NCBI RefSeq assembly: GCF_001447785.1
Contig: NW_015169795.1
Span: 593,327 to 657,326 of the forward strand
Reading direction: 5' to 3'
From: Gekko japonicus
Taxonomy: Eukaryota
DNA length: 64,000 nt
Below, piece after piece: positions 12,584-58,588 of this stretch (positions are counted from its first letter, which is position 1; each line of letters begins with the position of its first letter). Below the pieces are notes generated by a model that worked only from the letters and a program-made list of their open reading frames with translations, had not been told where the DNA came from and ran no database searches. The position numbers were made by a program, and so were the translations under genes.

Positions 12584-12898
12584 TTAAGAGCTTTCCCATT
12601 TCTTGGTCACATTAAGATGGTTGAGGTGTTCTGTGGCATACTTATGCTCAGGGAAATTAGATGTTAATGCCGCTCTCCTTGCTTCTCGGATTTCCTGCCA
12701 ACGCTCTTCATTATGGCGATACTCCTGCTCTCGAGTCATGTATGGCCGGCTCAGCCAATATTCATTTTCAGCTTCAATTTCCAACCTTTTAATCATCCTG
12801 AGCTTCATTCCCAAAGAAACAAACCTTGGCCGTCTGTGTTTGCCAATCCATTGTCTCCCAGGAATTCTGTTTCGAAGCAGCGCCACAGTGAGAAACAT
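12584..12898 (-). CDS. MRPL57: Mitochondrial ribosomal protein mL63 (MRPL57/MRP63), single coding exon, 104 aa
   Basis: [28 protein letters not shown]...[21 protein letters not shown]...HLNVTKKW matches MRPL57; true ATG at 12898, 2 nt downstream of acceptor cttttacttttaaag| (exon starts 12900). Confidence 0.97.
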
Positions 12899-15010
12899 TC
12901 CTTTAAAAGTAAAAGATGACATTTGATGTCTTGAAAATTAATAGCAGCAAGTGAATATTCTTTTAGTTAGCAACTCAAGCTTAAAGAGATGCACTAGGCA
13001 CTGGTGGAGATGGATTAGAAAATTCAACTTCTAGCTATAAACACACCTGTATCCTGTTTTATCCCTATCAGGGAATCCAGCAGGTACATCTTAACTGGGC
13101 AGAGCTAATACTCCTTCACCAATGGCCAAGCACCCTGTCCCAAGTTCTCTGTGGATTGTACAGAACTTGAGGGAGCAAATGAGTGTTCTCTCACTTTGAG
13201 CTAGGTCTGTGGAATCAAGCATGCCAAAGGATGGATCTTTTCTTACTTCATACCAGACAATGCAGGTCCTTCTCATTGTTTCCCTATTGCTTACGTATCC
13301 ATGTGCAGTGGGAACGGATACAGGCTGCGTCTAAATTCTCACTGCGGTGATGATTCTGTTTCTGAATGGACCACTTCGGTCTGCAAGTAGGGGACAACAT
13401 GACAATGCATACAAAAATAACCCTGCACAGAAAATTAGATGTCAGCAAGAAAGGTTCTGCTTAGCTTTCTCCCTGCCACATCTGTGGAGGAACTGGTGTA
13501 TGTGGAATAAACAGCAGAGCCAGAATGGTGTGCCGGTTAAGGTATCAGACCAGTATCTGGGAGACTCAGGTCTGAATCCCTAGTCTGCCATGGAGGTTTG
13601 CTGGCTGAATCCAGAACCAGGTATACCATCTCAGTGACAAATAGGCCTGTCCTAACTGTACCAGATAAACCTCTCTAAGCAGCTAACTGACCATAAAGGG
13701 CAGAAAGACTGTCTAACCAAACCTCATGTTAAAAAAACCCTCTTATCTAGGACAACATGAGTATTCCATAATAACTCAAGCAGCAGTTTCGCTATGCTAT
13801 GTGACAAGAAAGCAGAAGAGAAAACTGAATGCAGGTGCATACTTTCTCCCTCATGGGAATGCAAAGGATGTAAAGAGATAGGGATTTCAACCTCAACTCC
13901 CAATTACAATCCAGCCACATGAATCTGGAGTATTAGGAGAATGATCTTGTAAGGCTAAGACACCTGTACGAGATGCATGATTTTTATAAGAATCTGTGTA
14001 GCTTGTTTTATTTATTCTGACCTTTTAGGAACAAGGTGGGCCAAGCAGAAACTAAAAAAACAAAAGACTGGTCTTGTCTATACAAGCATAAATTCCACTG
14101 GATTTACTTTTTGCCTGAATAAGAATCAAGCTGCACAATCCACACTACTAGCACAGATGTCAGCTCAACTTTTCCCTCCAATGGGGCTGGCAGAGTCTCC
14201 TCTAGGCCAAAGCCTCTGAACAAAGCCACAATTTAGGCAGTACTTTTTGGCATAAGTTTCCATCAGCTTGAGGTCCTAGCATAGAAAATTTAATGTATAC
14301 AGAGGCCAAAATTCAATATAATCAAATTATTTAATCCCACTGATTCAACAGTTTTAACTCTGTTGGATTGGGGCCAGAGTGTTTCATTTCAGTAAATCAT
14401 AAATGCTTGGTGGGGGAAGAGAGGCTTCAATCTCATATGAAGATATGCAGAACTATGTATTATCTGATATTTTAGATGTAAAAGGGATACCATTATAACA
14501 CACCTGTTTTCTCTAAACAGTAAACTAACCATGACAGTTTTCCTTTGAAATGTACAAATGTTTAATCCCACAATGGATCTAGTTGAATCAATAACAGATT
14601 ATTTGTCACACAAAAACAAGGAGGGGGGAAGAGCTGGAAAGAAAACAAATTAACTATTGAGAGTAATTTACCATCAACATCTATGAGAAAATAGGGGCAA
14701 TTACAGAACATACAGTGATGACATGAACCTAGCTGAGCATCTGGCTGCACTTAAATGAAACTGACTGCAGGGACAGCTGCAACAAATGGCAACTAGGATG
14801 ATACAGCAGTTATAGTGTTGGACTAAGATATTATGGAACCCGGTTCAAAACCTTGCACTACCAGGAAACTTGCTGGGTGACCCTGGAGCAGCTCCTATCT
14901 CTTACAACAGGGCTGCCGGGAGGTCTAAACAGCAGAGAGGAAGCCACTGTATGCCACTCTGAGCTCCTTAGAGGAAGACAAGATAGAGATGTACTAACTC
15001 AATAAATACT

Positions 15011-15390
15011 AGAACAAATTTAGAAACCAATGGCACCTTTCAGACCAAAGTCTGATTCAAGGTATGAGCTTTCATGTGCTCTCACACATTCTCAGATACA
15101 CAGAAATGGAAGATAGATTCAGGTAGGTAGCCATGTTGGTCTGAAGCAGCAGAACAAAGCAATGGAAGGTTAATAGTTCAAACTTATAGACAAAGAATAA
15201 ACAGTAAATTAGCATGTAACATGGTGAAGATGTTTTAAGATATGCAGAGACATGCTAATTTGCTGTTCAGCCTCTGTCTGTAAGTTTGAACTGTTACCTT
15301 CCATTTCAATGTATCTGAGGTAGTCTGCATGCACACGAAAGTTCATACCTTGAATAAAACTTTGTTGGTCTTAAAGGTGCCACTGGACTC
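15011..15390. mobile_element. Foldback of Penelope-like terminal repeats carrying two hammerhead-like motifs
   Basis: Inverted arms 15161-15217/15250-15305 and 15011-15112/15297-15390. Confidence 0.65.
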
Positions 15391-16366
15391 CAGGCCTGTA
15401 GCTACAGTGGGGCTTTCAGGGGCTCTGCCCCCTTTCTTAAAGGCACAGTCCCATAAGAATTTCTTCTGTAAATGCTTTTTTCCAATTATTTTAAAACATT
15501 CTTAAAAGGTGTATGCTCCTTTAAGCAGAGTGGGGTGCTGTAGTTGACTAATGCCTGCACTGAGCAAGGGGGTTGGAGTAGGCAACTTCTAGGATCCCTT
15601 CTAACTCTGTTTCTGCCTAAGTGTTAACTTTCTTGACTACAGAAGTCATCACCCACACCTGCCAGCTCATTATCAGAATTGTTGCTTAGGCTGGCAGAAG
15701 TGATTAACTTTCAGCAACTGAGAACTGTCATCTAAACTGGTTGACAGTTTGCAATTTAGAGACTTATCCTAGTAACAGCTTTCTATTGACTAAATGGTTA
15801 AGACTCTGTCTCGAAGCTCTCTTCAACTTCCACCCTGCTGCTATGTAGTGAGAAGAATAGCCAGGTAGGTTTTTTGTTTTGGTTTGCATTCCTTGCTGGA
15901 CTGTATACGTTCTTTCCCTCATCTATGTGTTGTTTGTCCTTTGTTTTGTAAATAAAAGTTTTATGTGTTTTTATACAAATTGGAGAGTTTACTGGCCAAA
16001 CCCAGATAAGTATTTCCAGTGCCAGCCTACCATATACCAGAAAAATTATTCTCCTTTCACCCCCTTTCTCAGCCTGCTTTTGCCACACTCTGGGGCTAAG
16101 ATTTGCAGAAGCCTCTATGCTTTGATTTTAAAAGGCTTGATTCCACAGTAGCTAATCCTCAGAATTCTGGCTTTTCTTTCTCTGCTGAGAACTGCAGCCC
16201 CACCCCAAAAGAAAAAAATTGGCCCCGAAAGCCACAAAATCCTGGCTACTGGCGTGTTGGATTCTAATTTTGTTCTACTGCTTCAGACCAACACAGCTGC
16301 CCACCTGAAACTATCAATAAATGCTAGAATCATATGACCCTGACCTGATTCACTGAGGAACTTCTT

Positions 16367-17230
16367 GGCCCTGGTCACACGGGAGGGTTTGGCCCAAAAG
16401 AGGGATGGATCGGGGGCGCAGCAAACAGGCGCGATCCCACCGCAACATCTGGGAATCGGCGCGCACCCGTTCCCAATCCGTCCCTTCAGAACGAAAATGC
16501 AGTGCAAAAAAGAACCTACTAACTGGTAGGACTTACCTGAAGCACCGCAGCAAGCGCGGGCATGAGATCGCCGGCGCGCTTGTCTGCAGGAGCAATCGAG
16601 GCTCCCGGCCGAACTGCGCACACGCACACATGCGCAGTTTGGCTGCCTCGCTCTCCTTTCAGTGGCGGGGAGGAACTGCGTGGGGGCTCAGGGGGTCTGT
16701 GTGATCCCGCCACCACGGGTCTGTTTTGGTGCGGCTTTGAAAAGCCGCACTTTGGCCGTACTTCTCCCCCACACACACACACTTGAGCTCTTTGCAAAAA
16801 CAGGTAATTTAAAACTAATATTTATTAGTTTTAAATTACCTGTTTTTGCAAAGAGCTCAAGTGTGTGTGTGTGGGGGAGAAGTACGGCCAAAGTGCGGCT
16901 TTTCAAAGCCGCACCAAAACAGACACGTGGTGGCGGGATCACACAGATCCCCTGAGCCCCCCCGCAGTTCCTCCCCGCCACTGAAAGGAGAGCGAGGCAG
17001 CCAAACTGCGCATGTGTCAAACTGCCTCGATTGCTCCTGCAGACGAGCGCGCCGGCGATCTCATGGCCGCGCTTGCTGCGGTGCTTCAGGTAAGTCCTAC
17101 CAGTTAGTAGGTTCTTTTTTGCACTGCATTTTCGTTCTGAAGGGACGGATCGGGAACGGGTGCGCGAACAGGTAATTTAAAACTAATAAATATTAGTTTT
17201 AAATTACCTGTTTTTGCAAAGAGCTCAAGT
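16367..17230. mobile_element. Palindromic (foldback) MITE with a rearranged right end
   Basis: Left terminus GGCCCTGGTCACACGG shared with the element at 47137; arms 16460-16820 and 16823-17166 are reverse complements. Confidence 0.85.
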
Positions 17231-17559
17231 CGTATTCCCCAATTCCATCCTCACAACAACCTTGTGAAGTAATACAACCAATTTAGAGTCCAATGGCACC
17301 TTATTCCTTATTCAAGGTATGAGCTTTCGTGTGCACGCACCCTTTACCAAATACGGATCTACCTTGTGAAGTAAGTTAAAGAGGCGGTGAATGGTCTGAA
17401 AATTATATAATGGGTAAAGGGGGGTTTGAACCAAGAGTCCCTCGGTGGTAGGGAATATTCTAACGATTTATCTTTGCAATGGCTAACTTCCTTGCTCTTT
17501 ACACTTAACACCGCCAGCCTATGGCCTACGAGATTTTTAATAAGAAAATGCGAGGGAGC

Positions 17560-18130
17560 AAATAACGCCATGCCAGGCTGGATCCAGCCCGTAGCCTACG
17601 CAACACACTGAAGGCAGCTCCATCCCCACCACCATTTCCATGTGACAGCGAGGACTACCACTAGGGAAGGCGGGAAAGGAATCCAGTCGCCTCTCGTCCT
17701 TCCTTTCATCCACTCCAGCTCCCACAGGGGCCCTTCTTCGAGAACTCACCGAATACCAAACGGCCCGCCGCCTCCCCAGCAGCAGCCCTGGAGGATTCAA
17801 GATGGCGCCGCCCGACAAGAACCCGCTCGGTTTGCTGCTCTCGCGAGGCCGCCTGCGCGCTTGCTGGAATGACCAATCGGGGTCTTTGTTGTTGAGAGGG
17901 ATTCAAAGCGCGAGGCGGGACGCTGTAAGGAGGAAACGGCTGTTGCTGGAGCGGGTGGGGCGCGCGCGGTCGGGCTTGGGGGGGACTGGCAGAGTGGGCT
18001 TCTCCCGCTCCCCTCTTTCGGTGTAGGGTTGTTGGGGAGGTAGGGCTCGTAATTCTTGTTCATTTGCGTGGAGGTAAACGGGGAACACTTACTAGAAGCT
18101 CACCGTGTGTGTGTGTGTCAGGTAGGTTTC
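17560..18130. promoter_or_regulatory. Bidirectional CpG-island promoter of MRPL57/SKA3
   Basis: CpG-rich; YY1-type CAAGATGGCG 17798-17807, BANP-type TCTCGCGAGG 17839-17848, CCAAT 17873-17877, CHR (TTTGAA on minus) 17902-17907, consistent with a G2/M gene. Confidence 0.85.
17750..17830 (-). other. MRPL57: Non-coding exon 1 of MRPL57 (5' end approximate)
   Basis: Strong donor CG|GTGAGT at 17750/17749 on the minus strand inside the CpG island; the coding exon has an acceptor and so needs an upstream exon. Confidence 0.7.
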
Positions 18131-19277
18131 TTGTCCTCCTCCTTTATACTGTATTGTTTCCTGGGTGTATTGTATTGTTTGTGTTTCATCGTGCTCTGAA
18201 ATCGAGGTTGTGTGATATACTATTTCTGTTTCCTTTTCTTTTTAATGTGAAATCCGGTTTTATTGCATGGATCGTTACATGCTGTCTTTATTGTTGTTTC
18301 CTATAGCTCCTCCTTGAGTTTCAGTAAGAAAAGGTATAGGGTTAAATGACGAATGAAGAAGACAAACTAAGGACAAGTTTATCCGGGCTTGTTGCCCGTG
18401 ATAGCTAAATAAAGGCAGTACAGTTTTGTGCGTTTCTGTTGTTCTCCCTTCTCTCTGTTTCCTCCTCAAACCAATTTAGCAACGGGCAGCTCAATAAGCA
18501 GAAGCCTAGTGATTCTAGCATGAACTTTCCTGAATCAAAGCTCACTTCTTCAAATGCTAACAGAGGTTTCCCATGGCTGTTTAGAGTCAAGAAAATGGTC
18601 CGGAAGGCTTAAACCAGTCCCCCCCCCCTTGTGCCATAGATCTGATCTGGAATGCCTCAGGTTGCCAACTCTGGGTTGAGAAATTCCTGGAGCTTTGGTT
18701 GTGGGGTTTGAGGAAGGACTTTAATGGGGTATTATGCCATAGAGTCCTTCCTCAAAGCAGCCGTTTTCTCCAGTGGGGCTGGTCTATGTGGTCTGGCACC
18801 CCTAGTTGGTATGCCTGATGGCCCATTTTGGGAAGGGGAAATCAGTAGGAGCTGTGGGGATACACAACTGTTTTAGCATTAGATAGCAGGCACCGGAGGT
18901 TTAAAAAAGGAATGCTACCTTTTAATGCCTGACGGAAAGTTGGCCGCTATCGTAAGTAGGCCGTAGACTGGAAGACCGGACTCTGATCCAGTACAACAGC
19001 TGTACTTAAATTGTCATTACTTATAGAAGCCCGCAGACTCTACATGCATAAAATGTACAGTCAATGTCGTAACGTCTGTTGATGGTATTATCAGTCCTCA
19101 ACAATAGCCCAGCTATCGGTTACGGGGTTGAACATTGTGACTTTTGCTAAGAATCTTGTTCAGATGGAGCATACGCTTAGTCTTCCAGTAGCGGAGAGGC
19201 AGGGGTTGTGATGCAATGGTGGTCTTAAATCTAGAGGTGAAACCTTGTTAGGTTATTGCACCAAAATTAAACAGTGG

Positions 19278-19575
19278 TACTGCAAGAAGTCAATCCTAAA
19301 AGAAATCAACCCTGACTGTTCCCTGGAAGGCCAGATACTGAAGCTGTGGCCACCAAATGAGAAGGGAGCACTCACTGGAGAAGACCCTGATGCTGGGAAA
19401 GATTGAATGTCAAAGAAGAAGGGGACGGCAAAGGATGAGATGGTTAGACAGTGTTATTGAGGCAATGAACATGAATTTAAGCAAACTTCGAAGTACGACG
19501 GAAGACAGGAGGACCTGGCGTGATGTGGTCCATGGGGTCGCGAAGAGTCGGACTCGACTGTGCAACTGAACAAAA
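19278..19575 (+). mobile_element. BovB (RTE) LINE 3' fragment
   Basis: SLEKTLMLGKIECQRRRGRQRMRWLD is the BovB RT C-terminus; typical 3' tail follows. Confidence 0.9.
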
Positions 19576-20946
19576 CCACCTGTTTAATTTTGTATATTCT
19601 GGCATCAGCTTTTGTAGGAGAGAGCCATAAGGCAGAGTGTGAAGCGGTTCCCCTCACTTCAGATATGCAAGGGTTGGTGGGGAAAGACAGCCCTGCATAC
19701 TCAGAAGCAATCTGATAATTCTGAAGGTTGTTGTTACATACAATATAGCTATTGATATTATATGTGTGTGCGTGTGTGTGCAGTAGAGCATAATGCTTAT
19801 AGTGGCTCTTATGATTGATGACTGAGTCTCCATTAGCCTCAGAAAGTACCACTGGTATAGCATGAAAAGTCTGAGGACTTTTTGTAATTTTTCCAATGGA
19901 AAATTAGGAAGATTTGGGGAGGAGTGGGGGGAAAGACTTTATGAATTGTGAGGGGGCGAGTGAAATGTGCTGAGATTGCATAGGGTGCAGATGGTTGCAG
20001 CTATGTCTCACTTTAATATTAGGTATATGCCATTTAGTACAGTTTTATACGCTGAACCAGGGGTCATTTCCTGCAGGAGCGCACAGGAATGGAGCTCTGG
20101 CAGTAAAGAGTCCAGGGGGCGGGCACATGCAACAAGCCCCGCCCCCTGCTCCCAGCAGCCCTGGGCCACAAGAATCTGCGCGGTCCCCGTCCCCCCCATA
20201 GCTAGCAATCTAGAACAGTCCAGTGGAGCCTGAGCAGTGGGTATTGCCTTCTGACACACTTCCGGTGATACCAGGGGGTGTGGCATATGCAAATAAGTTA
20301 TGCTAATGAGTTGTGCTAATGAGCTCCTGCACCTCTTTTTCTACAAAATGTGAATTTTGTTAAAGCAGAAAAAAAATTAGCTAGGTTTGAAAGGAAAGTA
20401 AGTAGTGCATATATTTCAGTTTTCCTAACATTTCTTTCGGGGGGGGGGGGGGTCGCAGTTAATTTCCATGGCTTCAGAAATTTCCGGAAGTGTTACATCT
20501 CTCTTTAAAAGTAAAAAATAATTTCTTGTGTTCATTGATTTAGATAAGATTGAAGATTAGCTCTGAAGGAGGCATGTTCCATCATGTTTAAAAACTATTT
20601 TGCTTTCAGTTACCATAAGTTAGTATAAGGTCTGATCAGTTTAGGAATTATTGTTATAGGTAACCTTGTGGCAAGAATGAATCCCACAGCTGACTGGTAG
20701 AAAATAGCAATCGCCTACCAAGCTCAGGCACAGTTTGTGGATGTCTGTCTGGCTAAGCTATGTGCAGCTCAGGCCGGTACAGGGCCGGAATGGATTCAGT
20801 GGGATCTTCTGTTTTTCAAACTTCAGAAAAACCAACTTGTACTTAAATACTTCCCGTTATAATAATTCCCTATGTTGCCAGTTACTGGAAGTTTGCTCTG
20901 ATGGCAATAGCAATAAAACACTGTGTTCTGTAGGGTTTCCTCCAGC

Positions 20947-21049
20947 ATGGATCTAACAGGAAGTTTCTTCAGTAAACTGCGAGCCTTAGTGACCACTTTG
21001 GAGAGACAGGCTGAGCAGCTGAAGCAAGCTTCTCGTGCAGATGAAACCG
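20947..21049 (+). CDS. SKA3: SKA3 coding exon 1
   Basis: MDLTGSFFSKLRALVTTLERQAEQLKQASRADET vs human [34 protein letters not shown]; donor g|gtaaga; upstream acceptor at 20933 or 20945. Confidence 0.93.
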
Positions 21050-21429
21050 GTAAGAATGGAGTATAAATAGCAGTGAAATGTGAGGTTGGTGGCTTGGTTC
21101 TGTGGAATCCTCTAGTATGAATACATGGGCTTTTTCTTGCTGTTCTTTGACTGTGCACAAGCTATACAATGAACTGTTGTAAAATAGAACATCTTGTGAA
21201 CAGATGCTAGCCATGATCCCAAGAAATAGTTGCCTTGGTTTAAAGAGCTATAACCAACTTCCACCAGCCTGGGACTTTTGATTCGAGGGATGTCCTTTCA
21301 GTCCTAGGCACACATAAGGCTTAATTCTGGCTTGCTGTCCATAACCACGGGCTAAGTATTCTTTTGATGGACAGCAAACCAAGATTCGAAAATGTTTGGA
21401 GCAGATTTGCAGACCGTGATCAAATGCTG

Positions 21430-21708
21430 CAGTTTGGTGTAGTGGTTAAGTGTGCGGGCTCTAATCTGGGAGAACCGGGTTTGATTCCCCACTCCTCCAC
21501 TTGCACCTGCTGATGTGACCTTGGGTCAGTCACAAGCTCTGGCTGGCACAGCTGTCCTTGAAAAAGAGCAGTTTGTGTCAGAGTTCTCTCAGCCCCACCC
21601 ACCTCACAGGGTGTCTGTTGTGGGGAGGGGAAGGGAAAGGAGTTTGTAAGCCGCTCTGAGACTCCAAGTGAAGGGCAGGGTATAAATCCAATCTCCTCTC
21701 CTCTTCCT
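21430..21708 (+). mobile_element. Squam3-like SINE
   Basis: Near-identical to the reverse complement of 49787-50075. Confidence 0.85.
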
Positions 21709-22347
21709 CCATTTGCACTTAGCAAACCAAGGCTTCCAAGGCAGTTTCCCTGTCTTTCTCTAGTCTCCTGTTAGGGAGAGGGTTTAGTTTAGCAAACTCG
21801 ACTATAACTTCATTGCATATTTTTGGATTTGAACTAAGTTGTTAAGGCAAAATTCAGATGGAATGACAAAAACCCTGGGACTGGCTCTACTTGAATGAGA
21901 TGTGGCTTGTTCCCAACAAACCATAGTTTGCTGATTCTGATGAAATAGCCAGTCAGTCAGTTAGCCTTTATTGGCATAAAACAATACATTAAAAGAGGAT
22001 TACTATAAGAAAATATACATATAAAACCAGGTATTTTGCAAACTACATAATATTGCATAATGATGAAATAGCAAACTATAGCTTGCTGAAAATCCAGAAG
22101 TGACTAAATTAGCTTGGAACGTGTGAGCATGGGAAGGAAGAGGGATTGTGAGAATGAGCCCCAGGCTCATTCATGCAGCACGAAGTCATTTTACATTAAC
22201 TCATTGGTTCTGTTCAGATGTTTTCACCAGATCTTATTAGCATTTCACTATTATGTAATAGTAGTGATAACTTTATTTTTAAAATGTCATCATGGCTTCA
22301 TTGAGGTTCTAGGCTGAAACATGTCCATCTTCAACCATGACCTAGAA

Positions 22348-22493
22348 CAGGGGTGTCAATCATATGGCCTGCGAGCCAGATTTGGCCTGTCCAGGGCATT
22401 TATCTGGCTTACAAGCATGAGAGGGAGGGAAAAGGAGGTGTGAGGGAGGTGTATCAGATCCAGCCCTTGTAACAAATGAGTTCGACACCCCTG
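22348..22493. mobile_element. hAT (Charlie-like) MITE, 146 bp
   Basis: TIR CAGGGGTGTC/GACACCCCTG; 8-bp TSD ACCTAGAA/CCCTAGAA. Confidence 0.85.
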
Positions 22494-22557
22494 CCCTAGA
22501 ACATCTTAAGGATACTGAACTGTGCTTTTTCCCCCCCTTCATTTATGTGTCTTGGAG

Positions 22558-22622
22558 AATTTGAGGATGACTCCCCAATGAGATATTTACATGAACTGTA
22601 CTCTGAAATCAGGACACTGAAG
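22558..22622 (+). CDS. SKA3: SKA3 coding exon 2
   Basis: EFEDDSPMRYLHELYSEIRTLK vs human [21 protein letters not shown]; GAG acceptor, donor ag|gtaata. Confidence 0.92.
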
Positions 22623-24132
22623 GTAATATTTGGTTTGCTTACAGAATGAAAGTCTGAAACAATTTCGTTTCTACAGTATGGTCTGCATAATTTTCAAAGC
22701 AAGACAGCATATCAGTTTGACTGGATGGGTTATTGTGACTGGACTAAGAACTAGAACCTTTGAAGAGACTAGCCCGACAACTTCTCAGGAAGCTGGGCAA
22801 GGTCCTCCTCTTCTTTCTATTTTTAAACAATAGCACAACAAGTGAGTGTTCAGTTCCCAGTAGTTGTTACAGTCAGTATTGTCTTTGTAAGTTGTGACAT
22901 AGAGGAGGTTATCTGGCCCCAACAACCGGATTGTCAACAGCCAAACCCCTTTCAAGGCTTGAGCAGACTTAATCTCCGTAAGATCCAGTGGGATTTCAGG
23001 GAGCAGAGGGAATGGAGAGGGAGGGAGTTACCTATAATTGTTCACATTTTACCTCAGGCAGAGTGAGCCATGGATTAGAGTGGTCAGGAAAAGGGAAGCT
23101 CAGTGTTCTGAGGAATCAGAGGAGTTGGGGACCTGGTTGCTGGATGAGTGGAACCAAGTTAACGTCATTTTGAAAAACAATGTCAAGCTGAGAACATTGA
23201 GAGAGTGTTCATATTGCATTCTCTCGCTGATACAAAGTTTGGCTAGCGTGTGCTTACTTAAGGATAGTGATCTCAGAGAAAGCTGATAGTAATAGTAAAT
23301 CTCGATTTATGAACCTGAATGATTGTCCATGCAGTTATATCATTATAAAGTATTGGAATCTGTAACATCATCCAGCAAACTAATTGCCCCTTTTTTCAAA
23401 TAATTTGCAATAATTGTATGCCTTCTATGAACTACCTCATATGTGTTAACGTCTTCAGTATTGTTCATACTCCTCATCAGACTGTAAAGGGAGCTGAATC
23501 GTATAGTCAGAGTTATTAAAGTGGAGGCTGCCAGATCCTACAAAAACCTCTGCTTCAGAGGGACGTTGCGTGCAACTGCGAAAGGCACCAAAGAGCACTT
23601 TTTAAAACTTGCATCAAAGCCCACCTCAGCCACCTTTTCCACAGTAGGGTTACGCTGAATGCACATGAGGTAATAAACCAAAAGAGTGAGCTCTGACTTG
23701 GAAATGAATGTTGTAAGTCTTTAAGGCACCACTGGATTTTTGCTGCAACAAACTAGCACAGTTACATCTCTGCAATCCTGTGCACAGTTACATAAGAGTA
23801 AACACCATTAAACCCAGTGGGACATACTTCTGAGTAAATATGCATGTGACCAAACTGAAGCTCCCTGGGCAATCATTTGGCATAGACTCTAGCAAAAATC
23901 AGCAGTAAATCTGATTAAAGGGTTTTTTTAAAAAAAGAACTCTCTAATCAGCTTCTAGATAGCAGCCCCAGTTTAGTATCACATGGTTAGCGGAAACAGG
24001 AACAGAGTAGATTCTAAATAATCAATAAACAGTTACTTTAAAAACAATTGAACAAAAGTAAAATTTTCCCTAAGTTTTAAAGGCATCCGTATGCATAGAT
24101 TTCTTAAGCAACTGCTTAAACTTAGTCCACCA

Positions 24133-24425
24133 TTATTTATTTATTTGGATTTGTATCCCGCCCTCCCCACGAATGGGCTTGGGGTGGGTAACAACAATAT
24201 AAAATACAACATATTTAAAACCAAGTTAAAGCAACAATATACAATGCCATACTCCTAAGTACCATGTCAGCTCAGATAGAAGCATATCAGCAGTGGTGAA
24301 AGATTTAGGATGTTAGGGTCCAGGGGCCACTGGTGGGGTTGGCCACAAAAAGGGGCACCCGCTGCCTCAACCAAAAGCCTGGCACAACAGCTCCATCTTA
24401 CAGGCCCTGCGGAACTGCACTAAAT
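24133..24425 (-). mobile_element. L2-like LINE 3' end
   Basis: (TAAA)n tail with gccgccc..gagggcggg stem, also at 3173-3240, 53553-53620 and 54661-54720; FRRACK-like C-terminus. Confidence 0.6.
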
Positions 24426-24794
24426 TATGCCAATTTATTGGACTTACAAAAGGGGCAGTGATGTGAATATTTACGAAATTGAGATTCTAGGTTATCCCAA
24501 GGCAGCAAGTCTTATATAGGCACAAAAACTTAGTTAAAGGAAGGAAAATGACCCTTCTGTACTTCTGACTGTGGGAAAAATGACCAGGGGGAGGAGGGCA
24601 CTATAACATGACACATAAATCGGTTACAGGGCTGTTAGTTATTTGCAGAACTAAACAGAATGTAGCAGCACCTTAAAGATGAATATTTATTCCAGTATGA
24701 GCTTGAATGAGTCACCCTTCAGAGTGCTAGATGGTAAGATACATTCAAGGCTGCAATACTATTCACAATTATATAATACTCAAGACTTGGGACT

Positions 24795-25055
24795 TGGTCT
24801 AGTAGTTAAGAGTGGTGGACTCTAATCTGGGGAACCAGGTTTGATTCCGCACTCCTCCTCCACATGCCGCCACTGCCAGCTGGGTGACCTTGGGCCAGTC
24901 ACAGTTCTCGTAGAGCTGTTCTCTCAAGAGCAGTTCTCAGAGCTCTCTCAGCCCCAGCTACCTCACATAGGTGTCTGTTGTGAGGAGAGGAAGGGAAGGA
25001 GACTGCAAGCTGCTCTGAGACTTCGAGTGAAGGGCGGGGTATAAAGCCAATCTTC
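24795..25055 (+). mobile_element. Squam3-like SINE
   Basis: Homology to the other copies. Confidence 0.8.
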
Positions 25056-25153
25056 TGAGAAAATATGCTTACAATCAGACTGGTCCAGCCCTCCAATTGG
25101 GTGATGAACAAATTGGCCCTTGGGGCAAACCCCATCAGGGAAAGGTGAGTGTT

Positions 25154-26406
25154 TAAGAACATAAGAGACGCCAATGTTGGATCAGGCCAAAGGCCCATCC
25201 AGTCCAACACTCTGTGTCACACAGTGGCCAGAAATACCAGGTGCCATCAGGAGGTCCAGCAGTGGGGCCAGGACACTAGAAGCCCTCCCACTGTTGACCC
25301 CCCCCAAGCACCAAGAAGACAGAGCATCACTTGCCCCAGAACCCCTATCTATACCTTGTGGCTAATAGCCACTGATGGACCTCTGCTCCATATGCTTATC
25401 TAATTCCCTTTTGAAGCCGTCCATGCTTGTAGCCGCCACCATCTCCTGTGGCAGTGAATTCCATGTGTTAATCACTCTTTGGGTGAAGAAGTACTTCCTT
25501 TTATCCGTTCTAACCCGACCGCTCAGCAATTTCATGGAGTGCCCACGAGTTCTTGTATTGTGAGAAAGGGAGAAAAGTACTTCTTTCTCTACCTGCTCTA
25601 TCCCATGCATAACCTTATAAACCTCAATCATGTCTCCCTTCAGTCGTCTTTTCTCCAAGCTACAGAGCCCTAAGCTCTTTAACCTTTCCCCATAGGGAAA
25701 GTGTTCCAACCCTTTAATCATTCGAGTTGCCCTTTTCTGCACTTTTTCCAAAGCTATAATATCCTTTTTAAGGTGTGGTGGCCAGAACTGCACACAGTAT
25801 TCCAAATGAGGTCGCACCATTGATTTATATAGGGGCATTATGATATTCACTGATCTGTTTTCAATAGCCATCCTAATAATCCCCAGCATAGCATTGGCCT
25901 TTTTTATTGCAGTCACACACTGTCTCGACATTTTCAGTGACTTATCTACTAAAACTCCAACATCTCTCTCTTGATCAGTCTCTGCCAGTTCAGACCCCAT
26001 CAGTGTGTATTTATGTTTAGGATTTTTGGCTCCAATGTGCATCACCTTGCACTTGGCCACATTGAACCCTATTTGCCATGTTGACGCCCGCTTGCCCATC
26101 CTTGACAGATCCCTTTGGAGTGCCTCACAATCCTCACTGGTTTTCACCACCCTGAACAACTTCGTATCATCCGCAAATTTAGCCACTTCACTGCTTACTC
26201 CCAACTCCAAATCATTAATGAACAAGTTAAAAAGCAGTGGACCAAGTACTGATCCCTGCGGTACCCCACTGCTTACCACCCTCCACTGAGAAAATTGTCC
26301 ATTTATACTCACTCTCTGTTTTCTATTAATTAGCCAAATTTTGATCCGTAAAAGGAGTTGTCCTTTTATCCCATGATTTTTGAGCTTACTTAGGAGCCTT
26401 TCATGA
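25154..26406 (-). mobile_element. 5'-truncated young CR1 LINE with uninterrupted RT C-terminal frame (25362-26405)
   Basis: GVPQGSVLGPLLF, KFADDTKL, RPHLEYC motifs; 3' UTR and CTTATGTTCTTA tail. Confidence 0.95.
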
Positions 26407-27106
26407 GCAGAACTTCACTGGCTGCACTGGGCTCTCTTAAATCATCTGTCACAATAAAGCTGTAAAACTGCCAGGAGCCAGCTTGGGTCACCATTGAAAC
26501 CTGGTACCTGGGGTTGTCAGGCCCTGAAGTCTAAAACAGAACATAATTTGATACGTCAGATACATTATCTCCATTACACATCATGACAAAAAATGAAAGC
26601 ATGATAGATGTTGCAGGTTTGTGTGACTGGTGGGAATATGGATTGAAACTCCTTGGAGCTATTGTGTGCTTAGAAGAAATTGGAAGTAGGGGGCCCTATC
26701 TGGACCTCAACTTATTTAAGGGCTGCTTTGCCCTTACTGTCTCGTGGAAACGATTGTTTTGTTTATCTGTATTTAGAATGTGGCTTAGATAATAGGAAAA
26801 TATTACTTGTATTACTTGTATTTGTAGCTGGCCCCAATATGTAGGATGGCTGCACATCTCAACTCCCTCCTTCCCCACAAAATAATCCATGTTTTCATTA
26901 TTCAGCCGTTCAATGAACATGTATTTCTGATATTCTCTATGAAAAGACAGAAGGAAATCATCCATATTATGGATTCCCATTTTGTGGAACAAAATACCCT
27001 TTTTAAAGGCTATGTCAGTTCCACTGTATCAGCACTCATAACGAGTGATCTTGCTCTGTTCTGATCTTGTCATATAGCTTGCTAACAATTTTTTTTTTAA
27101 TTCAAG

Positions 27107-27269: not shown

Positions 27270-28321
27270 GTAATTTTTTTTCTTTCCCAGTCTAGAAGGT
27301 TTGGCAACATCTAGATATCATCATTTTATTTTGTATCCAAAAATTGTCCAGAAAACTCCCCCATCCCCAGGTTCCTTAAACTGACTGAGATCTGGTTTTC
27401 CATGGTAGTTTTTTAGTGTTTCTGTTTTATGCCAGGTTAGTTTTGCATGCTGTATAAACACCTCTGTTTTTTCCCCAGTAACCTAAAATATTTGACTAGC
27501 AAAAAAAATCAGGACGGTGTACCTAATGTATTTTGAATCTTATGTCTCAAGTTTTACCTGGAATTATGGGGTAGATTCACTCATTCCCTTCTAATGCCAA
27601 GGTATCTTCTTCCTGTTCCTTATAGCTTGACTTCCTTCCATTGGGGGAATGTTTCTCAGGCAAATTGAGTCATTTGATTCAATTGTACTTTATGCTTAAA
27701 GACATGATGGCTCAATAGTCTTTTTTTGCCTTACAGTGTATAATTTTTTCCTTTACGACGTTAAAAAATGTTTCTCCTGATTCTAGGGCTAGGGAAAGCT
27801 TTGCACAACAAGTCACTTTTGTCCGCTCATATCTAAAAAGTTAAAATCCCATTAAACTGCAAGCTCTAATATAAACAGAGGTTTGTTTGCACTGAGTATG
27901 GTCCCAGCTTGTTTGCTGTGTTCATGTAATGCCATCCCCTGACTACTTCTACTACCCCCTCCCCCTTATCTACAGAGCTTCCTGGTTTGATGGTCACAGG
28001 AAATAGAAGGTTGATCAGATTGTAAAATGTCAACCTCTACAGGTAAGAGAAGGAGACATTCAGAGGAATACACATTCCAACAGCTGTGTTCAGTGTATTG
28101 GTGCAGTGTATTCAGATGTCACAAGAAATTGTAGCCTGTCATTCCAAGAATGAACCTTGGAAGACTTTTGGGAGGAGGCAGCATGCATGCTCAGGCCATG
28201 CTCCTGATACCTGGATTCTGGGAATCCAGTTATCCAGTTAAGACTGAAGCAACTGCATTCTTTTAAATAGTTTATAGGCTGAGAAACAGCACAAATTCAA
28301 GCCTCTCTTTTTTAAATAAAG

Positions 28322-28673
28322 CAACAAAAGATGAAGCTGAAACTGATCCTGAACCTGCCAAGTCTGATCAAGAGGAACTGAAAAACCTTGCTTGCCCTGA
28401 AGATTCTTCCAGACCTGATCCTCTGGTGCGAATTCCACAACTTTCAGATTTTGGGCTTTCAAAATATGCTCTCCCCAGTACTTGGAACACTGTGAATATA
28501 TTACAACAAGCCCATGTACAGAAGGAACAGCCAAGAGAGGATTATTCTGGTTGCCCATCACCCAAGATAGAACAGTTCTGTATTAAAGGGCGTGACCTTT
28601 CTGTGGACAATGACACTGTATATTTGACAGAAGACCAAACAATCTTCTTGCTCAATAATGCAAAAAAAAGTAG
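28322..28673 (+). CDS. SKA3: SKA3 coding exon 4
   Basis: Open in phase; contains PQLSDFGLSKY and SPKIEQF...YLTEDQT motifs of SKA3; donor ag|gtaagt. Confidence 0.92.
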
Positions 28674-28849
28674 GTAAGTAGCATCCTTTTGAAACTCTGT
28701 GAGAAATGACGACTAGATGTTCTTACTACCTTATTTTACTTTCTGCCCTTAATGTGTAGGTTCATTGTTGTGTTTCCAAACATTAAAATAGTGTCTAAGC
28801 TACATATATGTGTAAACTACAAATATATGTACAATGTTTAAAACAAATC

Positions 28850-35461: not shown

Positions 35462-35726
35462 CACAGTTTGCCTAGGGGTGCCAAAAAAAAACTTGGTTGG
35501 CCCTAGAGGGGGGTCACCATACCAGAAAGTAAATTTAGACTTCAGAGTCACCATACCAGAAATTTTGGAAACTGCTGAAGTGAAAGCATAGGCACACAGT
35601 TTGCCTAGGGGTGCCAAAAAAAACCTTGGTTGGCCCTAGAGGGGGGTCACCGTACCAGAAAGTAAATTTAGACTTCAGGGTCACCATACCAGAAATGTTG
35701 GAAACTGCTGAAGTGAAAGCATAGGC
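35462..35726. repeat. Tandem duplication, 2 x 133 bp
   Basis: Units start at 35462 and 35595 with only a few mismatches. Confidence 0.95.
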
Positions 35727-40879: not shown

Positions 40880-42558
40880 CAGAGGCAGGAGAACCAACTA
40901 GAACACTTGAGACTTCAGCACAGGGCACACTAAGCAGTCGCACCTCCCGGGGGTGAAGCTGCGCACAGGCAGAAGGGGGGGGGGCATGCATCGCACACAC
41001 CCCCAGGAGCCTGGCCAAAGGCTCCTGGCCAAAGGACTTCTGAGAGGTCGCCTCTTCGCCAGTGCGATGCTGGGGAATCGAGGCGCTTCTCCGTCCCCAT
41101 GGTCCCTCTGCCGAATGTCTGTAAACAACTAGTGACGCTGACTGGGACAAGCGCTGGAGATCGAGCAGCTAAAAACGAAAGCAAAGCAAGGTTGGATGGC
41201 CGAATATGAACGTGAGTCAGAATAGAGCGGTTTTGCAAAGTTAAAAAGAAAGCTCCCCCGCCCCACGCACTAGAGAGCAAAGCGAGCGGGGGAGGGGCCC
41301 CTCCATGTGCATAGACTTATAAGCAAGATCGGGGGGGGGGAGCGGAAGTAAAAGCGGCAAAAACTGTTGGAAAGACTTACCAAGGCGTGTACGAGTGTAT
41401 GAGCGCATATTCAGAGACTTTTAAAAGTTTGGCGAAGGTAAACAACAGACAAAGATGGCGGGGAAGAGGACGGAGAAGGAGAAACTTTTAAAAACGAAAC
41501 CAGCCGAAAGTCCACGACCGGAAGGAACCACCGAGTTGGCTAAAACGATGGCAGAGTCCCTGCGCCCCCTGCTGGAGCAGATGAATAACCTCAAGGAGCA
41601 GCTGCCAAAAATGAATCAATGTATCACCACTCAGCAGACACAACTCAAGGAGACTCTTAAAAGCATGGATCATCAAACAGCTGAGAAAATGAAAGGTTGA
41701 CACCACTGCTCAAAAGGTGAAGAAAAAGGTGCAAAAATTGGGAAAAAAGCAAATTTCAACAGAACAGCTTTTACAATTACAAATGGAGAGGGCAAACCTG
41801 GTCCTTCGTTTCCAGGGTGTTCCAGAGAGCAGAGGAGAGAATCTGAAGCAAATGATGAGCGAGGCATTGGCCCCAGTGACAGATTTGAAGGAGTGAAATG
41901 GATGTGGTCTACAGGTCCTACTCCATATACATAAAGAAGAAGAATCTGCCTGGGGAAATTGTAATGAGATTCTCGAAGAGACACGTGAGGGATTGTATCC
42001 TAAGGGTGATGGCGGGGACGCCTTTGAAAATTGGGGACAGTAGTATTTGGATTCTGAAAGATATTCCATTTGAAATAAGACAACGGAGAAAGAAATACAA
42101 AGATTTAATTGGAAAAGGACAGTAATTCCAGTGGTGAGCTGGACTTGGAGTCTTCTGGACTCTATCTGAGAAGGGGGCAGCGGCTCCTAAAAGTCCTTAT
42201 AAACTGCGGAAGAGACAAGATAAGAAAAAATGAGGGTTGAAGGACTCTGAATGGTGCCTGACAAATATTGGGGTTTTTTAACATGGAGATGCTGAGGGGT
42301 CTTTTCATAACAGTTAAATTTAAGATTTAAAAGTCATAAAAGCATGTCTGACTAAGTTCATAAAACGTAGCATTTTAAGAGTTGGCATTGTATGTAAGCT
42401 AATTTGATTATCTCCTCTCGGGTTTTTAGTCAGTAGTGGTTATCTTTTCTTTCTCCTCTAAATGTAGTACCCCTCCCTTATTTTTATTATAGTTTGTAGT
42501 CCATATAGAAAATGCAATAAAAAAATCCCCTTTGGGGGGCCAAAAAATAAAAAAAAAA
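40880..42558 (+). mobile_element. L1-clade element with 5' UTR, frameshifted ORF1, no ORF2, and poly(A) tail
   Basis: Coiled-coil N-terminus from 41455, then LRFQGVPESRGENL and PGEIVMRFSKRHVRDCILR...IWILKDIPFEIRQRRKKY (L1 ORF1p RRM/CTD-like); AATAAA 42516, A-tract 42542-42558. Confidence 0.75.
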
Positions 42559-43678: not shown

Positions 43679-43835
43679 TTAGTAAGGTCTCATGCGACCT
43701 GATGGAGGTGGTGCTCGATTTGGAGGTGTAATTGCTATGTCCAAGTAGTCACCTATCTGGAATTTCTGAGATTGCAGGGTCATGGAATCATCTGTGCCCT
43801 TTCTGCCTGACATTGTACTGCCGATCTCCTTCACC
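43679..43835 (-). CDS. SAP18: SAP18 exon 4 (coding part)
   Basis: VKEIGSTMSGRKGTDDSMTLQSQKFQIGDYLDIAITPPNRAPPPSGRMRPY*, as in human SAP18. Confidence 0.98.
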
Positions 43836-44439
43836 CTGTAGGAAAAAACAAGATACACGATAATTTGCCTCCAGTAAATCAAGTATCTGAAGGCCACACT
43901 AAGAAAGATGCTATGTTGTGCATGAGACTGCCCCCAATCCCTATATTTGCTCACCCCCAAAAGAGCTGACTTGACTGTCAGAGGCCTGGATAAAAGATCC
44001 AGTTTGACATCAAAGTAGAGGCCCCTGAGCTAGCAGTACTTTCCTTGGATACTCTTCACATGAGAGCAGCCTAACAGCTGGAATGCTCTAGAGAGCATAT
44101 CGATTAAAGGCCTTTTGTCTGAAGCCTCCTCAGACCCATGGTCTTAAGCAATGACTCAGGTTTAATATAATAACCTGAGACCCAGCAGCTTCCTTTACAA
44201 TTCAACTTTCTCCAGTATTTCAATCACATGCCCAGGAATTGTCATCAAGCTACTGCTCAGCATTTGTAAAACCAGCCTGAGCTGGTCCACCACTCAGGTA
44301 ACTCAATCACTCCACCTGAGCTGTTCTGCTGTGCTCTGTCTCCTGATCTAGAATGCCCGTATTTGGACCTAGACCCTAAATGCTCATCTATCTGCACTCA
44401 CACAAAAGTCAAATTCACCAACAGGACACAAGACCTGCT

Positions 44440-46910: not shown

Positions 46911-47705
46911 CAGGGGTGTCAAACATGCGGCCCTTGGGACGGATCAGCCCCCCACCCCTGGGCTTCTATCAGGCCCGCAGTGGAACTGGCTGTCTTCTGC
47001 TTCCAGTTCTGCTGCTGCTGCATCATCGTAGGTTTGCAGCTTACAGATACACACCTGAACAGCATACTCAAAATTGCAACAGCACAGACATTTTGATGCA
47101 ATAATTCAGAGCAAGAGGTATCAGTTATCAGACACTGGCCCTGGTCACACGGGCCGGATATCGCGGGGGGGGGGAGGCGTGGCTAATTGCCCTGGCGCAG
47201 TTTGATCTGCGATTACGCAATCAGACACGCCAGCAGCACACCACAGGTCCTTCCCTTGGCACCGGTGGGTAAACGAGGGACCGAAGGGGAATGCCGCGCG
47301 CCGGGACGATCATACCACGGGCGTCTGGAGGCAGCCCGTGGCAAACATTTACTAGTACTTTGGAGGTACTAGCTTTTTAATGCGCATGGTCGGCGGTAAG
47401 CCACGGGTGCGCTCCACTTCCCAGATAATCCACTTCCCAGATAATCCGCCCACCATCCGTGCCTCTCCCGCGGCAACTTTGCCGTGTGACCGGGGCCACT
47501 GTTAAATAAACAAAATATTGCAAGAGTGCTAATGTTTTAAGCATGTTTTTATTTTAAGTTTTAAAAAACCTTTTGTGTTTGTGTCCTTTATAAAGTTTAT
47601 ACCTCCGCTACCTGGCATTACATTTTATGACACACATGGCCCGGCCCAACAAGGTCTCATTTATGTCAGATCTGGCCCTCATAACAAATGAGTTCTATGC
47701 CCCTG
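46911..47705. mobile_element. hAT (Charlie-like) non-autonomous element hosting a nested MITE
   Basis: TIR CAGGGG..CCCCTG; perfect 8-bp TSD GCTTATAT (46903-46910, 47706-47713). Confidence 0.9.
47137..47497. mobile_element. PIF/Harbinger-like MITE
   Basis: TIR GGCCCTGGTCACACGG/CCGTGTGACCGGGGCC; 3-bp TSD ACT. Confidence 0.8.
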
Positions 47706-51479: not shown

Positions 51480-51796
51480 TAGGGTTGCCAGCCTCCAGGT
51501 GGCACATTAAGCGACACACCCCTAATGTAGCCAATCCTCCAAGAGCTTACAGTAGCTCCTGTAAGAAGAGCTCTGTAAACTCTTGGATTGGCTACATTAG
51601 GGGTGTGTGGCCTAATATGCAAAGGAGTTCCTGTTACAAAAAGAGCCCTGAGTTTCCCTGGAGAAAGCGGTTGCTTTGGAGGGTGGATTCTATGGCATTA
51701 TACCCTGCTGAGGTCTCTCCCCTCCCCAAACCTCGCCCTCCCTAGGCTCCACCCCCAAATCTCCAGGTGTTTCCCAACCCAGACCAGGCAACCCTA
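51480..51796. mobile_element. hAT (Blackjack-like) MITE containing an internal hairpin element
   Basis: TAGGGTTGCC/GGCAACCCTA termini; internal inverted repeat CACACCCCTAATGTAGCCAATCC/GGATTGGCTACATTAGGGGTGTG. Confidence 0.7.
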
Positions 51797-54655: not shown

Positions 54656-55771
54656 GACATTTATTTATTTATCCGATTTCTAGGCCGCCCTCCCCGCGAA
54701 CGGGCTTAGGGCGGCTAACATCAGGGCACACACGCCAGTACATAAAAACAGGATAAAACCAAATAGTTACCAAATTTACAAAATAAAATGCTCCAAGATG
54801 GTCCAAGATAGTAGTCTTCCATTTAGTAGATGCTTTCTGTCAGTTACTATCAGCCATACTGGTTCAGATTTAGCCATGGTGGCTCCATGTTCAGAGGTGG
54901 TATACCTCTGCACACTAGATTCTGTGAGGCAGAAAAGCTGTTGCCTTCATGACTTGCCGTGGACTTCCCAGAGGCATTTTGGTTGCCCAATGTGGGAAAC
55001 AGCCTTCTGGACCAGCCTCTTTTTTCTTTACTTTTTTTTTTGCCATCAAGTCACGGCCGATTTATGGCGACCCCATAGGGTTTTCAAGACAAGACACGTT
55101 CAGAGATAGTTTGCCATTGCCTGCCTGTGTAGCAATCCTAGTATTCCTTGGTGGTCTCTCATCCAATTCCTTGCCAGGATCCCTGCTGAGCTTCCGATAT
55201 CTGATGAGATTGGGCTAGCCTGGGTTATTCAGGTCAGGGCAACTATGGATAGATGGATGGATGGATGGATGGATATAAACTGTATTACAATATCTAGTAG
55301 TTTAATAATTGTATTGCAAAATAAACATCAAACACAATGTAAGAAAACCAATTAGAAAATAATTGCCATGCAGATTACAAACACAACATCTGCAAACTAA
55401 AACAATACATCTCAGCACTAGCACTATGATGGTCACAGGAGGGTCTTTCTTCAGCAAAATAACCGTAATGCATTTTTCAGGTAAATCATTCAACAACATT
55501 TCCTTTTTTTTTTATTGTGACCTGAAATACATTGAGGATTAGCTAGATGGCACTCAAATCTATTTCCATGTCCAGGACGAAGGAAATGCTTAAAACCTCA
55601 AATCAAGCCATTTTGTCAGAAGACCCTCTTATTTTATTGCTCTTTACTTCCTAAGTGGTATATATACTATATCTAAACTGTTCTACATCATCTTGGATGG
55701 GAGTAGGGCCTTCCGTATTGCATTGCCAAAAAACTACTGGGAGTTTTGTGGCACCTTAAAGACTGATTTTA

Positions 55772-56226
55772 GGTTGCAGTCACATGCACCAAAAAAACAG
55801 GGGGGGGGCTATTTCTTCCAGAGGAATTTGACCCACAGTTGCACAATCACACCGCCCTTTGAAGCTGCGGGTGCAGTCCATCAGTGTGTGATCAGACGCA
55901 GTGTGTGTTGTTTCTTTCCCATGCGCTTAAACGGGATCGATGAATCGCACATCCCCACCAAGGGCTCCCTATGGAGTTTGCGATGATGCACATACTGGGA
56001 AGGGGGGGGGAAACAATGGCACGGAGTCGGGACGGCCTGATCAGACCATCCCGATGCCATGAGCATGCTGAAGCAATCAGACACGGGAAAATCCATCCGT
56101 GGCCCATCGCAACCTGTTTACTACCAGGTTTTCCCCGGTGTCTTTTAACTCCACTTCTGTGGCGGAGCAGAACGGGTTGCCAACGGCTACGGGGCGCTTC
56201 CCAGATGTTGTTGTCTGATTGCGCCC
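55772..56226. mobile_element. Harbinger-like GC-rich MITE
   Basis: Imperfect TIR GGTTGCAGTCACA/TCTGATTGCGCCC; CpG-rich relative to flanks. Confidence 0.5.
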
Positions 56227-57528
56227 TTTAGTGTAGGAAATTTGGCCATTCTTTCTTCTGGCAGGTAACCCTGCCAGGTAGATTTGCAGCCAGAACATTT
56301 CAGTTTGTTCTCTCACAAACTCATAATATGCATCTACTCAATGCTGATCCCTCTAAGAACAATATTTCAGTTGTTTTAAGAACAGATCTTGGAAAATATT
56401 TTAAGAATCTTATTTGTCATGCAATTAAGAGCACAGTTTGTTCGTAGTATAAAGGGGGGGGTTGCTTGTTTTGAGTAGTAACTGTATGTTTAAAGGGGGA
56501 AAAGGCACAGGAAATGAATTTCCAGTCTTTTTCCTCATAGGCCGATGAATCACTTGCATTCTTGGCAGTCAAGTTCAAATTCACAAGAATGCTCAGTTTG
56601 ATCAACTTCCTTCAAAACATCATTATAAAAAAGTAAGCACAAAGCGACAGAGTGGGGGAAGACAAAAAGAAAATGCTGCTTTGACGGGCCTATATGTAGA
56701 AAACGTCACAACGCAGAAGTGTCAGAGAGACCTTTAATCTAATGTGTAAATCCCCCCCCCCAAGTCTGTTTTACCATAGAACAAATGAAGGTAATCCTAC
56801 TGGAAAGAATATGAAAATATTAATCACAATTAAATATAGTGTTTTGTATTTTTTCAGGCGTACAAGAGTGCACCTATCATATTCACTTCTGAGGCTGTTA
56901 GGGAGCAAGAAAAGCTGGATTGCCAGGCAGCTTCCCTATTTTGAGATAAATAACCTTGCAGCTCAATCACACCACCAGCAGTATTTCCAGTGTACCGATT
57001 TAACTGGCTAAGCTGGTTCTGCTGGTTCTATTGTGATGTAGACAGAGGGTGAGAAGATTCAATTGTTCCTTACTATTCAGTTGACTTGTATATAAATTCT
57101 ATAGCTTTGAGAAGAGCTATAGAAATATCATGACTGATAACAAAAAAAGATAATAATGACTCACTGAACAAAGTAGCCTTTAAACATAGTCTAATGCTTT
57201 GCTAACATAACAAGTATTTCTGAAGGAGTTATTTTTTTCATTTAATTGAATACATTTATATGCCACCTTTCCACTCAATTCAGGGTATACAAGGCAGACA
57301 ACATTAAAATATTTTTAAACATTAAAATTCATTTAAAATACAAATATATATAAAATATGTAAAACAGGTAAATAAAATATAAAGACATAAAGCCACAAAC
57401 AAGATGGAAGACTAGTAAGAGTTAGTGGGCAAATACCAAACAACAACAAAAATCTTCACCCACTGGAAGAAGACAATGACAGAGAGACAGACAAATCTCC
57501 CTGAGGAGGGAGTTCCAGCATTTCAGAG

Positions 57529-58373: not shown

Positions 58374-58588
58374 TTACGAGAATGTCTTGCATCATGGTGA
58401 CATTTCCTTGAAAACAGTTAGACTCCTCTAGTCTGTGGACATATTAATTCTTCTAAAATACTAATTGGAAGCCATACGTTTTACAAGAATGTCTTGCATC
58501 ATGGTGACATTTCCTTGAAAACAGTTAGACTCCTCTAGTCTGTGGACATATTAATTCTTCTAAAATACTAATTGGAAGCCATACGTTT
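58374..58588. repeat. Tandem duplication, 2 x 107 bp
   Basis: Units start at 58374 and 58481; one mismatch. Confidence 0.95.

Follow-up and report, generated by a model that had tools for sequence, protein, structure and literature searches.

The structure at 16367-17230 of the 64-kb window (the whole stretch of gecko DNA that was analysed, 64,000 nt) is probably the scar of a one-off, local template switch in a young, non-coding, Harbinger-like MITE located in a gecko intron, a reading that we hold with moderate confidence. Its occurrence in vivo, the enzymes involved and the order of events are what we infer from the geometry, which was itself read, together with a rebuilding of the locus by a single insertion, directly from the assembled sequence. 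The parts of the locus are the following.

16367..16459, forward strand: unpaired outer end of a non-autonomous DNA element, with the terminus GGCCCTGGTCACACGG at its start
16460..16820, forward strand: left arm, GC-rich (57%), CpG o/e 0.90, with small internal hairpins; a (CA)n run extends to near 16782 and the final 40 bp are AT-rich
16821..16822, forward strand: main loop, TT on the forward strand
16823..17166, reverse strand: right arm, the reverse complement of the left arm with 6 substitutions in 344 bp
17018..17023, forward strand: secondary scar in the right arm, where 23 nt are gone and 6 nt stand in their place
17167..17230, reverse strand: second tip, an exact inverted copy of 16781-16844, with a 22-bp stem and an AA loop at 17189-17190

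When 16340-16821 was aligned end to end to the reverse-complemented 16822-17260, on the assembled sequence and not on reads, 16460-16820 paired with 16823-17166 around the 2-nt TT loop at 16821-16822, which reproduces the arms and loop given in a preliminary description of this DNA. The six substitutions counted there were exact (16475/17151, 16560/17066, 16581/17045, 16681/16962, 16695/16948, and 16718/16925), and the single indel listed with them proved to be a replacement, with 23 nt on the left (16603-16625) facing 6 nt on the right (17018-17023). Pairing is perfect over the innermost 102 bp of the palindrome. Folded as DNA, the palindrome reached -510.1 kcal/mol, compared with -145 +/- 5.7 for shuffled sequences (z-score -64.5), and none of the 20 shuffles was equally stable; the palindromic structure is far beyond chance. 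A scan of 200-63800 for hairpins with a stem of at least 14 and a loop of at most 10 returned the two tips only. Given that two of the six arm substitutions are transitions at CpG sites, the arm differences look like evolved mutations, and a gradient of arm homogenisation toward the tip was not significant (p 0.12). The six nucleotides of the secondary scar, together with the next 2 nt, repeat the 8-mer at 17003-17010, 15 nt upstream, which appears to be the pattern of a deletion with a templated insertion. Presumably a polymerase-theta-type mechanism or slippage was responsible.

The right arm stops abruptly at 17166, with no microhomology to the adjoining sequence, and is followed by the second tip. 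All positions of 17167-17230 are identical to the reverse complement of 16781-16844 (64/64), so the tip does occur, as had been claimed, as an exact 64-bp inverted copy, once with TT and once with AA in the loop. Read as a direct copy of 16799-16862, the same segment differs at 2 of 64 positions, both of them loop bases, and the "flip" rests on two nucleotides. The second tip ends 2 nt inside the TG run of its template, and no further copies of the tip were found within the 64-kb window. Dating the second tip against the arms was uninformative, with 0 differences seen and about 1.2 expected. The absence of a right-hand partner for the left 93 bp (16367-16459) was also borne out: when a right terminus was sought within 16400-27000 as the reverse complement of the first 15 nt, the best site, at 22120, carried 4 mismatches in 15. 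To call the right end "lost" and "replaced" is interpretation, not observation.

The MITE terminus recognized in the left 93 bp is common to an intact, two-ended element of the window, which holds two diverged relatives of the focal element and no close copy.

47137..47497: related intact MITE-like element of 361 bp, with the same terminus and 15-nt TIRs that differ at one position
55771..56228: second relative, older and less close to the focal element, with a CpG o/e of 0.65 and boundaries read by eye

Positions 16366-16383 (one flanking base included) match the left end of the 47137 element at 18 of 18 positions. Aligned against the reverse strands of the two relatives, segment 16367-16590 scored 73 with 47137-47497 and 65 with 55771-56228, where the best of 300 shuffles reached 33 and 39, respectively; the right end of 55771-56228 aligns from 16428 inward. 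The inner arm (16591-16820) matched neither relative significantly (p 0.05-0.76). Both relatives are distant and belong to other subfamilies, and neither is a foldback (0/2): the halves of 47137-47497 are identical at 52 of 81 positions, over the outer ~80 bp only, and those of 55771-56228 show no significant palindromic symmetry (p 0.56). A long palindrome or a duplicated tip was likewise seen in 0/2 of them.

PIF/Harbinger elements typically have a 3-bp TSD (available parts of PMC9179366 and PMC3014272), with TIRs given as 14-25 bp in the latter source and as 25-50 bp in the former. The short TIRs and 3-bp TSD of the 47137-47497 relative point to PIF/Harbinger, of which the focal element would be a member; it is called Harbinger-like only, because the TSD of that relative is ACT, non-canonical with respect to TTA/TAA, and no autonomous partner was found. 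Like PIF/Harbinger MITEs, the focal element is short and non-coding with a terminus starting in G, but it has a left terminus only, in place of two-ended TIRs, and no TSD pair, and its 345-bp near-perfect arms are absent in the relatives. A PIF/Harbinger MITE family would be expected to have many near-identical members, with termini in common with an autonomous element that carries a transposase and Myb. The CTT that precedes 16367, also without a right-hand partner, is possibly half of a 3-bp target site. Being now one-ended, the element should be immobile. The CpG o/e of the arms (0.90, versus 0.28 for the window and 0.09 for the left 1 kb) suggests a young insertion. Two terminus-like motifs in the left half, at 16429-16441 and 16699-16711, form an inverted pair matching at 11 of 13 positions, the outer of which coincides with the aligned end of the 55771-56228 element; either nested termini or repeated binding sites might account for them. 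The related MITE contains a perfect 16-bp tandem duplication at 47413-47447.

The ORFs over the element contained no Pfam families, as in a non-coding element. None of the 33 stop-to-stop ORFs of at least 70 aa, collected within 13000-22000 only, belonged to transposase, Rep/HUH, or protelomerase families, and the sole family hit among them was L31, below its cut-off. In protein searches, which were also aimed at translations of further copies, two frames of the element had no relatives (0 scoring among 202 and 6 candidates, near lengths only), and a third gave one weak match (E 6.1e-4, 35% identity) that was unused as evidence. Such negatives from protein sets say little on copy number, and non-coding gecko DNA need not be covered by these sets. 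Origins outside the host were also considered and set aside: a phage or plasmid origin with no blastn match of 16367-17230 in 50,697 phage and 72,556 plasmid records, and a prokaryotic telomere with 0 matches of the exact tip pattern in GTDB genomes. A structured RNA was rejected, as no Rfam family reached its gathering score anywhere in the window.

The palindrome sits between a recognizable coding frame and a CpG island, and its right flank is an old repeat.

12587..12892, reverse strand: coding frame of MRPL57 (mL63), Pfam MRP-63, E 7e-34
17231..17272: right flank, an old SINE-like repeat fragment that resumes after 17374

The MRPL57 frame is 76-83% identical to five named gecko orthologues, with a few other lizards interleaved. 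The CpG island (17501-18150) contains a donor-like site at 17749 on the reverse strand, and an acceptor-like site lies at 12930 on the same strand; since the palindrome is placed between the coding frame and this island with its donor-like site, it is probably in the first intron of MRPL57. Translated stretches at 28267-28677 (forward strand; no Pfam hit) and 43679-44029 (reverse strand) are presumably exons of SKA3 and SAP18, and if the former holds, 17501-18150 would be a shared MRPL57/SKA3 promoter. A different repeat, set between 14-bp direct repeats (17259-17272 and 17361-17374), splits the flanking SINE-like repeat. Among the other SINE-like copies covering the junction, 11 of 11 start at query position 41 or lower, compared with 54 for the focal copy, a shortening that is consistent with loss of flanking DNA; we take the junction side of this SINE to be its 3' tail.

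Several other repeats were observed. Fragments of another repeat lie around the palindrome in both orientations (15004-15390, 16257-16315, and 17267-17360), the first of them itself palindrome-like and the last placed between the 14-bp direct repeats named above, and this repeat presumably resembles reptile Penelope-like repeats. LINE remnants at 25365-26414 (reverse strand) and 62938-63651 (forward strand) carry reverse transcriptase (RVT_1) and endonuclease domains. A CpG-rich stretch at 40901-41650, perhaps the 5' end of a retroelement, runs into a possible ORF start and has no match to the focal element. Older imperfect palindromes occur at 52544-52793 (89/120 columns) and 51502-51620 (49/57 columns), with no relation to the focal element by blastn or nhmmer.

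In the favoured explanation, a polymerase would have come off its template at the AT-rich hairpin tip or close to it, copied nearby DNA off the opposite strand, and then rejoined. A tip copied from the other strand would have its loop inverted, so that one TT and one AA tip would be expected, and the pair tells nothing of how the family moves. The loop is described as inverting when a forward inter-strand switch copies the tip (PMC8794818, legend of Fig. 1F), and in the available text of PMC8604942 a 2-bp spacer at an ordinary inverted repeat in yeast SPO75 is seen to alternate repeatedly between AA and TT, and a spacer flip in yeast REG2 came with arm extension. The locus matches the four-point template-switch model (as given in the accessible part of PMC7954356), with the descendant pattern of forward tract, reverse-complement tract, and forward tract, and two orders of events fit this pattern. 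The secondary scar at 17018-17023 is a second error of similar style and supports the template-switch reading. The preliminary description had proposed templated repair, and for real DNA templated repair or template switching at the hairpin is the best explanation; the further step of that description, from flip/flop tips to rolling-hairpin replication, is not supported.

The single most likely path, although tentative, is the order assumed in the preliminary description, in which a fully palindromic element would have lost its right 93 bp along with the target site and part of the flank, and 64 nt from the element's own tip would have served to patch the break. This order needs one event, but it would require a palindromic family, and 0/2 in-window relatives are palindromic. 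Alternatively, and somewhat doubtfully, the second tip would be the original stump, and the long right arm would have been inserted: at first, a 40-bp hairpin with AA as its loop would have terminated the element on the side of the present 17167-17230, and a switch within the stem would have copied 385 nt back to 16460 and returned at 16799, producing the long arm. In this order, 18-40 bp of stem would guide the first switch, the return would fall where synthesis left, and the event is a standard one under the four-point model. When 16799-17166 is removed in silico, a perfect 40-bp stem closed by an AA loop remains; a single inverted insertion of 385 nt then restores the locus, save for differences between the arms that amount to 9 mismatch columns and 17 gap columns. 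However, this order needs an earlier event for the 40-bp stem, and also the survival of a 102-bp perfect stem while six substitutions accumulate. That it took place in vivo at this single locus, as an abortive fold-back, is unlikely. Under either order, the key 17166/17167 junction is without microhomology and so has no positive mechanistic signature, which counts against the scar reading, as does the fact that the same geometry is obtainable from an assembler.

Comparisons with known systems showed that the locus works like known template-switch and foldback events and lacks the features of rolling-hairpin and ODIRA products that were tested. As in template switches and inversions of inverted-repeat spacers, a nearby tract is present as its reverse complement, an inverted repeat is made or extended, and a loop is inverted (available portions of PMC7954356, PMC8794818, and PMC8604942); the yeast examples in the last of these have arms of 10-16 bp, whereas a long arm gained by insertion at this locus would involve a far longer tract of 385 nt. 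Foldback inversions and ODIRA inverted triplications, which proceed by leading-to-lagging or fold-back priming, similarly centre on a pre-existing short inverted repeat (PMC10766183, PMC10622511, and bioRxiv 10.1101/2025.01.14.632981, as far as their accessible text goes). They differ in that the long segment here (16460-16780) is present twice and not three times, only one junction is on an inverted repeat, 17166/17167 having neither inverted repeat nor microhomology, and the event spans hundreds of bases.

Mis-assembly is a serious alternative to the template-switch scar, and although we consider it rather unlikely, it is more plausible than the preliminary description implied. The true locus would then be simple, with a single arm running from the left end to a 40-bp AA-loop hairpin that adjoins the flank, and with the second allele misassembled as the right arm. 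The assembly is presumably built from short reads, and a short-read assembler or gap filler would run through the hairpin onto the opposite strand and abut the right-hand contig, a wrong turn whose geometry is that of the long-arm insertion; the arm differences would then be heterozygosity. In a weaker form, the locus is real and the main loop was oriented arbitrarily, giving no flip. At k = 21, 25, 31, and 41, all k-mers of 16000-17600 were present in two simple in-silico alleles, each with one arm and the 40-bp hairpin, except those over 17166/17167 (40 of 1561 at k=41, all crossing this junction). Up to k=103, the k-mer multiset is identical for either orientation of the main loop; for the second loop, k=24 already suffices to fix the orientation. 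From k=42 upward, however, a few k-mers that span the main tip are missing from these alleles as well, so that a longer k or longer reads would resist the wrong turn, and since both alleles were constructed out of the arms as observed, the result speaks for feasibility and not for occurrence.

The window also shows signs of a draft, with its sole N run (54330-54353, 24 nt), a parent record of 882 kb, and two near-perfect two-copy tandem duplications whose divergence is similar to that of the arms. False allelic duplications are documented, sometimes joined by wrong gap filling, in the available part of PMC9516828, where false duplicates most often have a gap between the copies; no N is present at the palindrome, and this usual gap is missing. 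Six substitutions and a 17-nt net indel in 344 bp are, in our judgement, high for alleles. The tandem pairs themselves, at 35462-35726 (132-133 bp, 4/132 differences) and 58374-58587 (107 bp, 1/107), may be real or abutted allelic overlaps.

An origin of the AT-rich tip in the tail of a host SINE is improbable. A broken MITE would have joined the SINE, and the palindrome would have grown by successive fold-backs, a route that needs several steps. The last ~14 nt of the second tip are in register with some SINE copies, the inner arm lacks a match in either relative as noted above, and the 64-mer gained in pairwise score over shuffles (p = 0.038 for a 10-copy sum and 0.032 for the best copy, among several tests with no multiple-test correction). 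The gain was not significant for the 40-nt and 18-nt parts (p 0.07-0.18), however, and a profile HMM test of the tip against the SINE gave p 0.76 and 0.84. An alignment of the SINE profile across the whole second tip was discarded as void, as the profile contained the focal copy.

It is still less probable, and indeed very unlikely, that the MITE family arises or multiplies by way of hairpin-ended intermediates and that the locus is one of these, trapped: a one-ended MITE that was rebuilding its end by fold-back and stopped 93 bp short of a full, mobile palindrome, leaving both tip orientations behind. Least probable of all is that the family replicates or transposes via a hairpin-ended intermediate, like that of rolling-hairpin replication or the Angel stem-loop, with the locus as an integrated partial concatemer. 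The order arm-tip-arm-tip resembles a truncated inverted concatemer, but a concatemer would be expected to run through the outer end, and here the arm ends 93 bp early, with the sequence resuming 22 nt short of the next loop. The preliminary description had taken the flip/flop tips as a sign of rolling-hairpin replication; copying of the tip from the opposite strand is alone sufficient to invert the loop, loop flips also arise at ordinary chromosomal inverted repeats (accessible text of PMC8604942), and no Rep/HUH or protelomerase was present in the 33 ORFs of 13000-22000. Neither of the two relatives is a foldback, and 47137-47497, with ordinary TIRs and a 3-bp TSD, bears the marks of cut-and-paste; the hairpin-intermediate reading rests on n = 1 locus.

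FLIP and FLOP are genuine products of AAV replication (PMC7671332, in its available part), and in parvovirus and AAV hairpins, as here, an unpaired part of the hairpin occurs in two orientations. The present hairpin differs from these in having no Rep gene within 13000-22000, a non-terminal position, no internal B-C palindromes, and both forms in tandem at one site; it is a simple, internal stem with a 2-nt centre, and the second tip follows a truncated arm. The Angel model (Izsvak et al. 1999) likewise concerns a palindromic element with an A/T-rich centre of strand detachment and re-priming (PMC5172404; bioRxiv 10.1101/2020.10.01.322784, available portions). It differs in invoking intra-strand fold-back and extrachromosomal stem-loops in the accessible text of PMC5172404, with no excised intermediate shown here, and an intra-strand fold-back would keep the loop orientation of the first tip. 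The searched literature, largely open-access, described neither this element nor flip/flop tips in any MITE family. Many copies with both tip orientations would make the stem-loop model of MITE origin testable, and if both loop orientations occurred in other copies, they would be direct genomic evidence for the Angel stem-loop origin of MITEs.

If the locus is an artefact, it illustrates that hairpins of ~40 bp in draft assemblies can inflate into long palindromes with apparent flip/flop tips. If it is real, as the template-switch reading holds, it is a readable example of a hairpin tip driving template switching in a vertebrate germ line. It would also be a long, near-perfect palindrome persisting about 500 bp from a CpG-island promoter, and the MRPL57 pre-mRNA could fold there into about 345 bp of double-stranded RNA.
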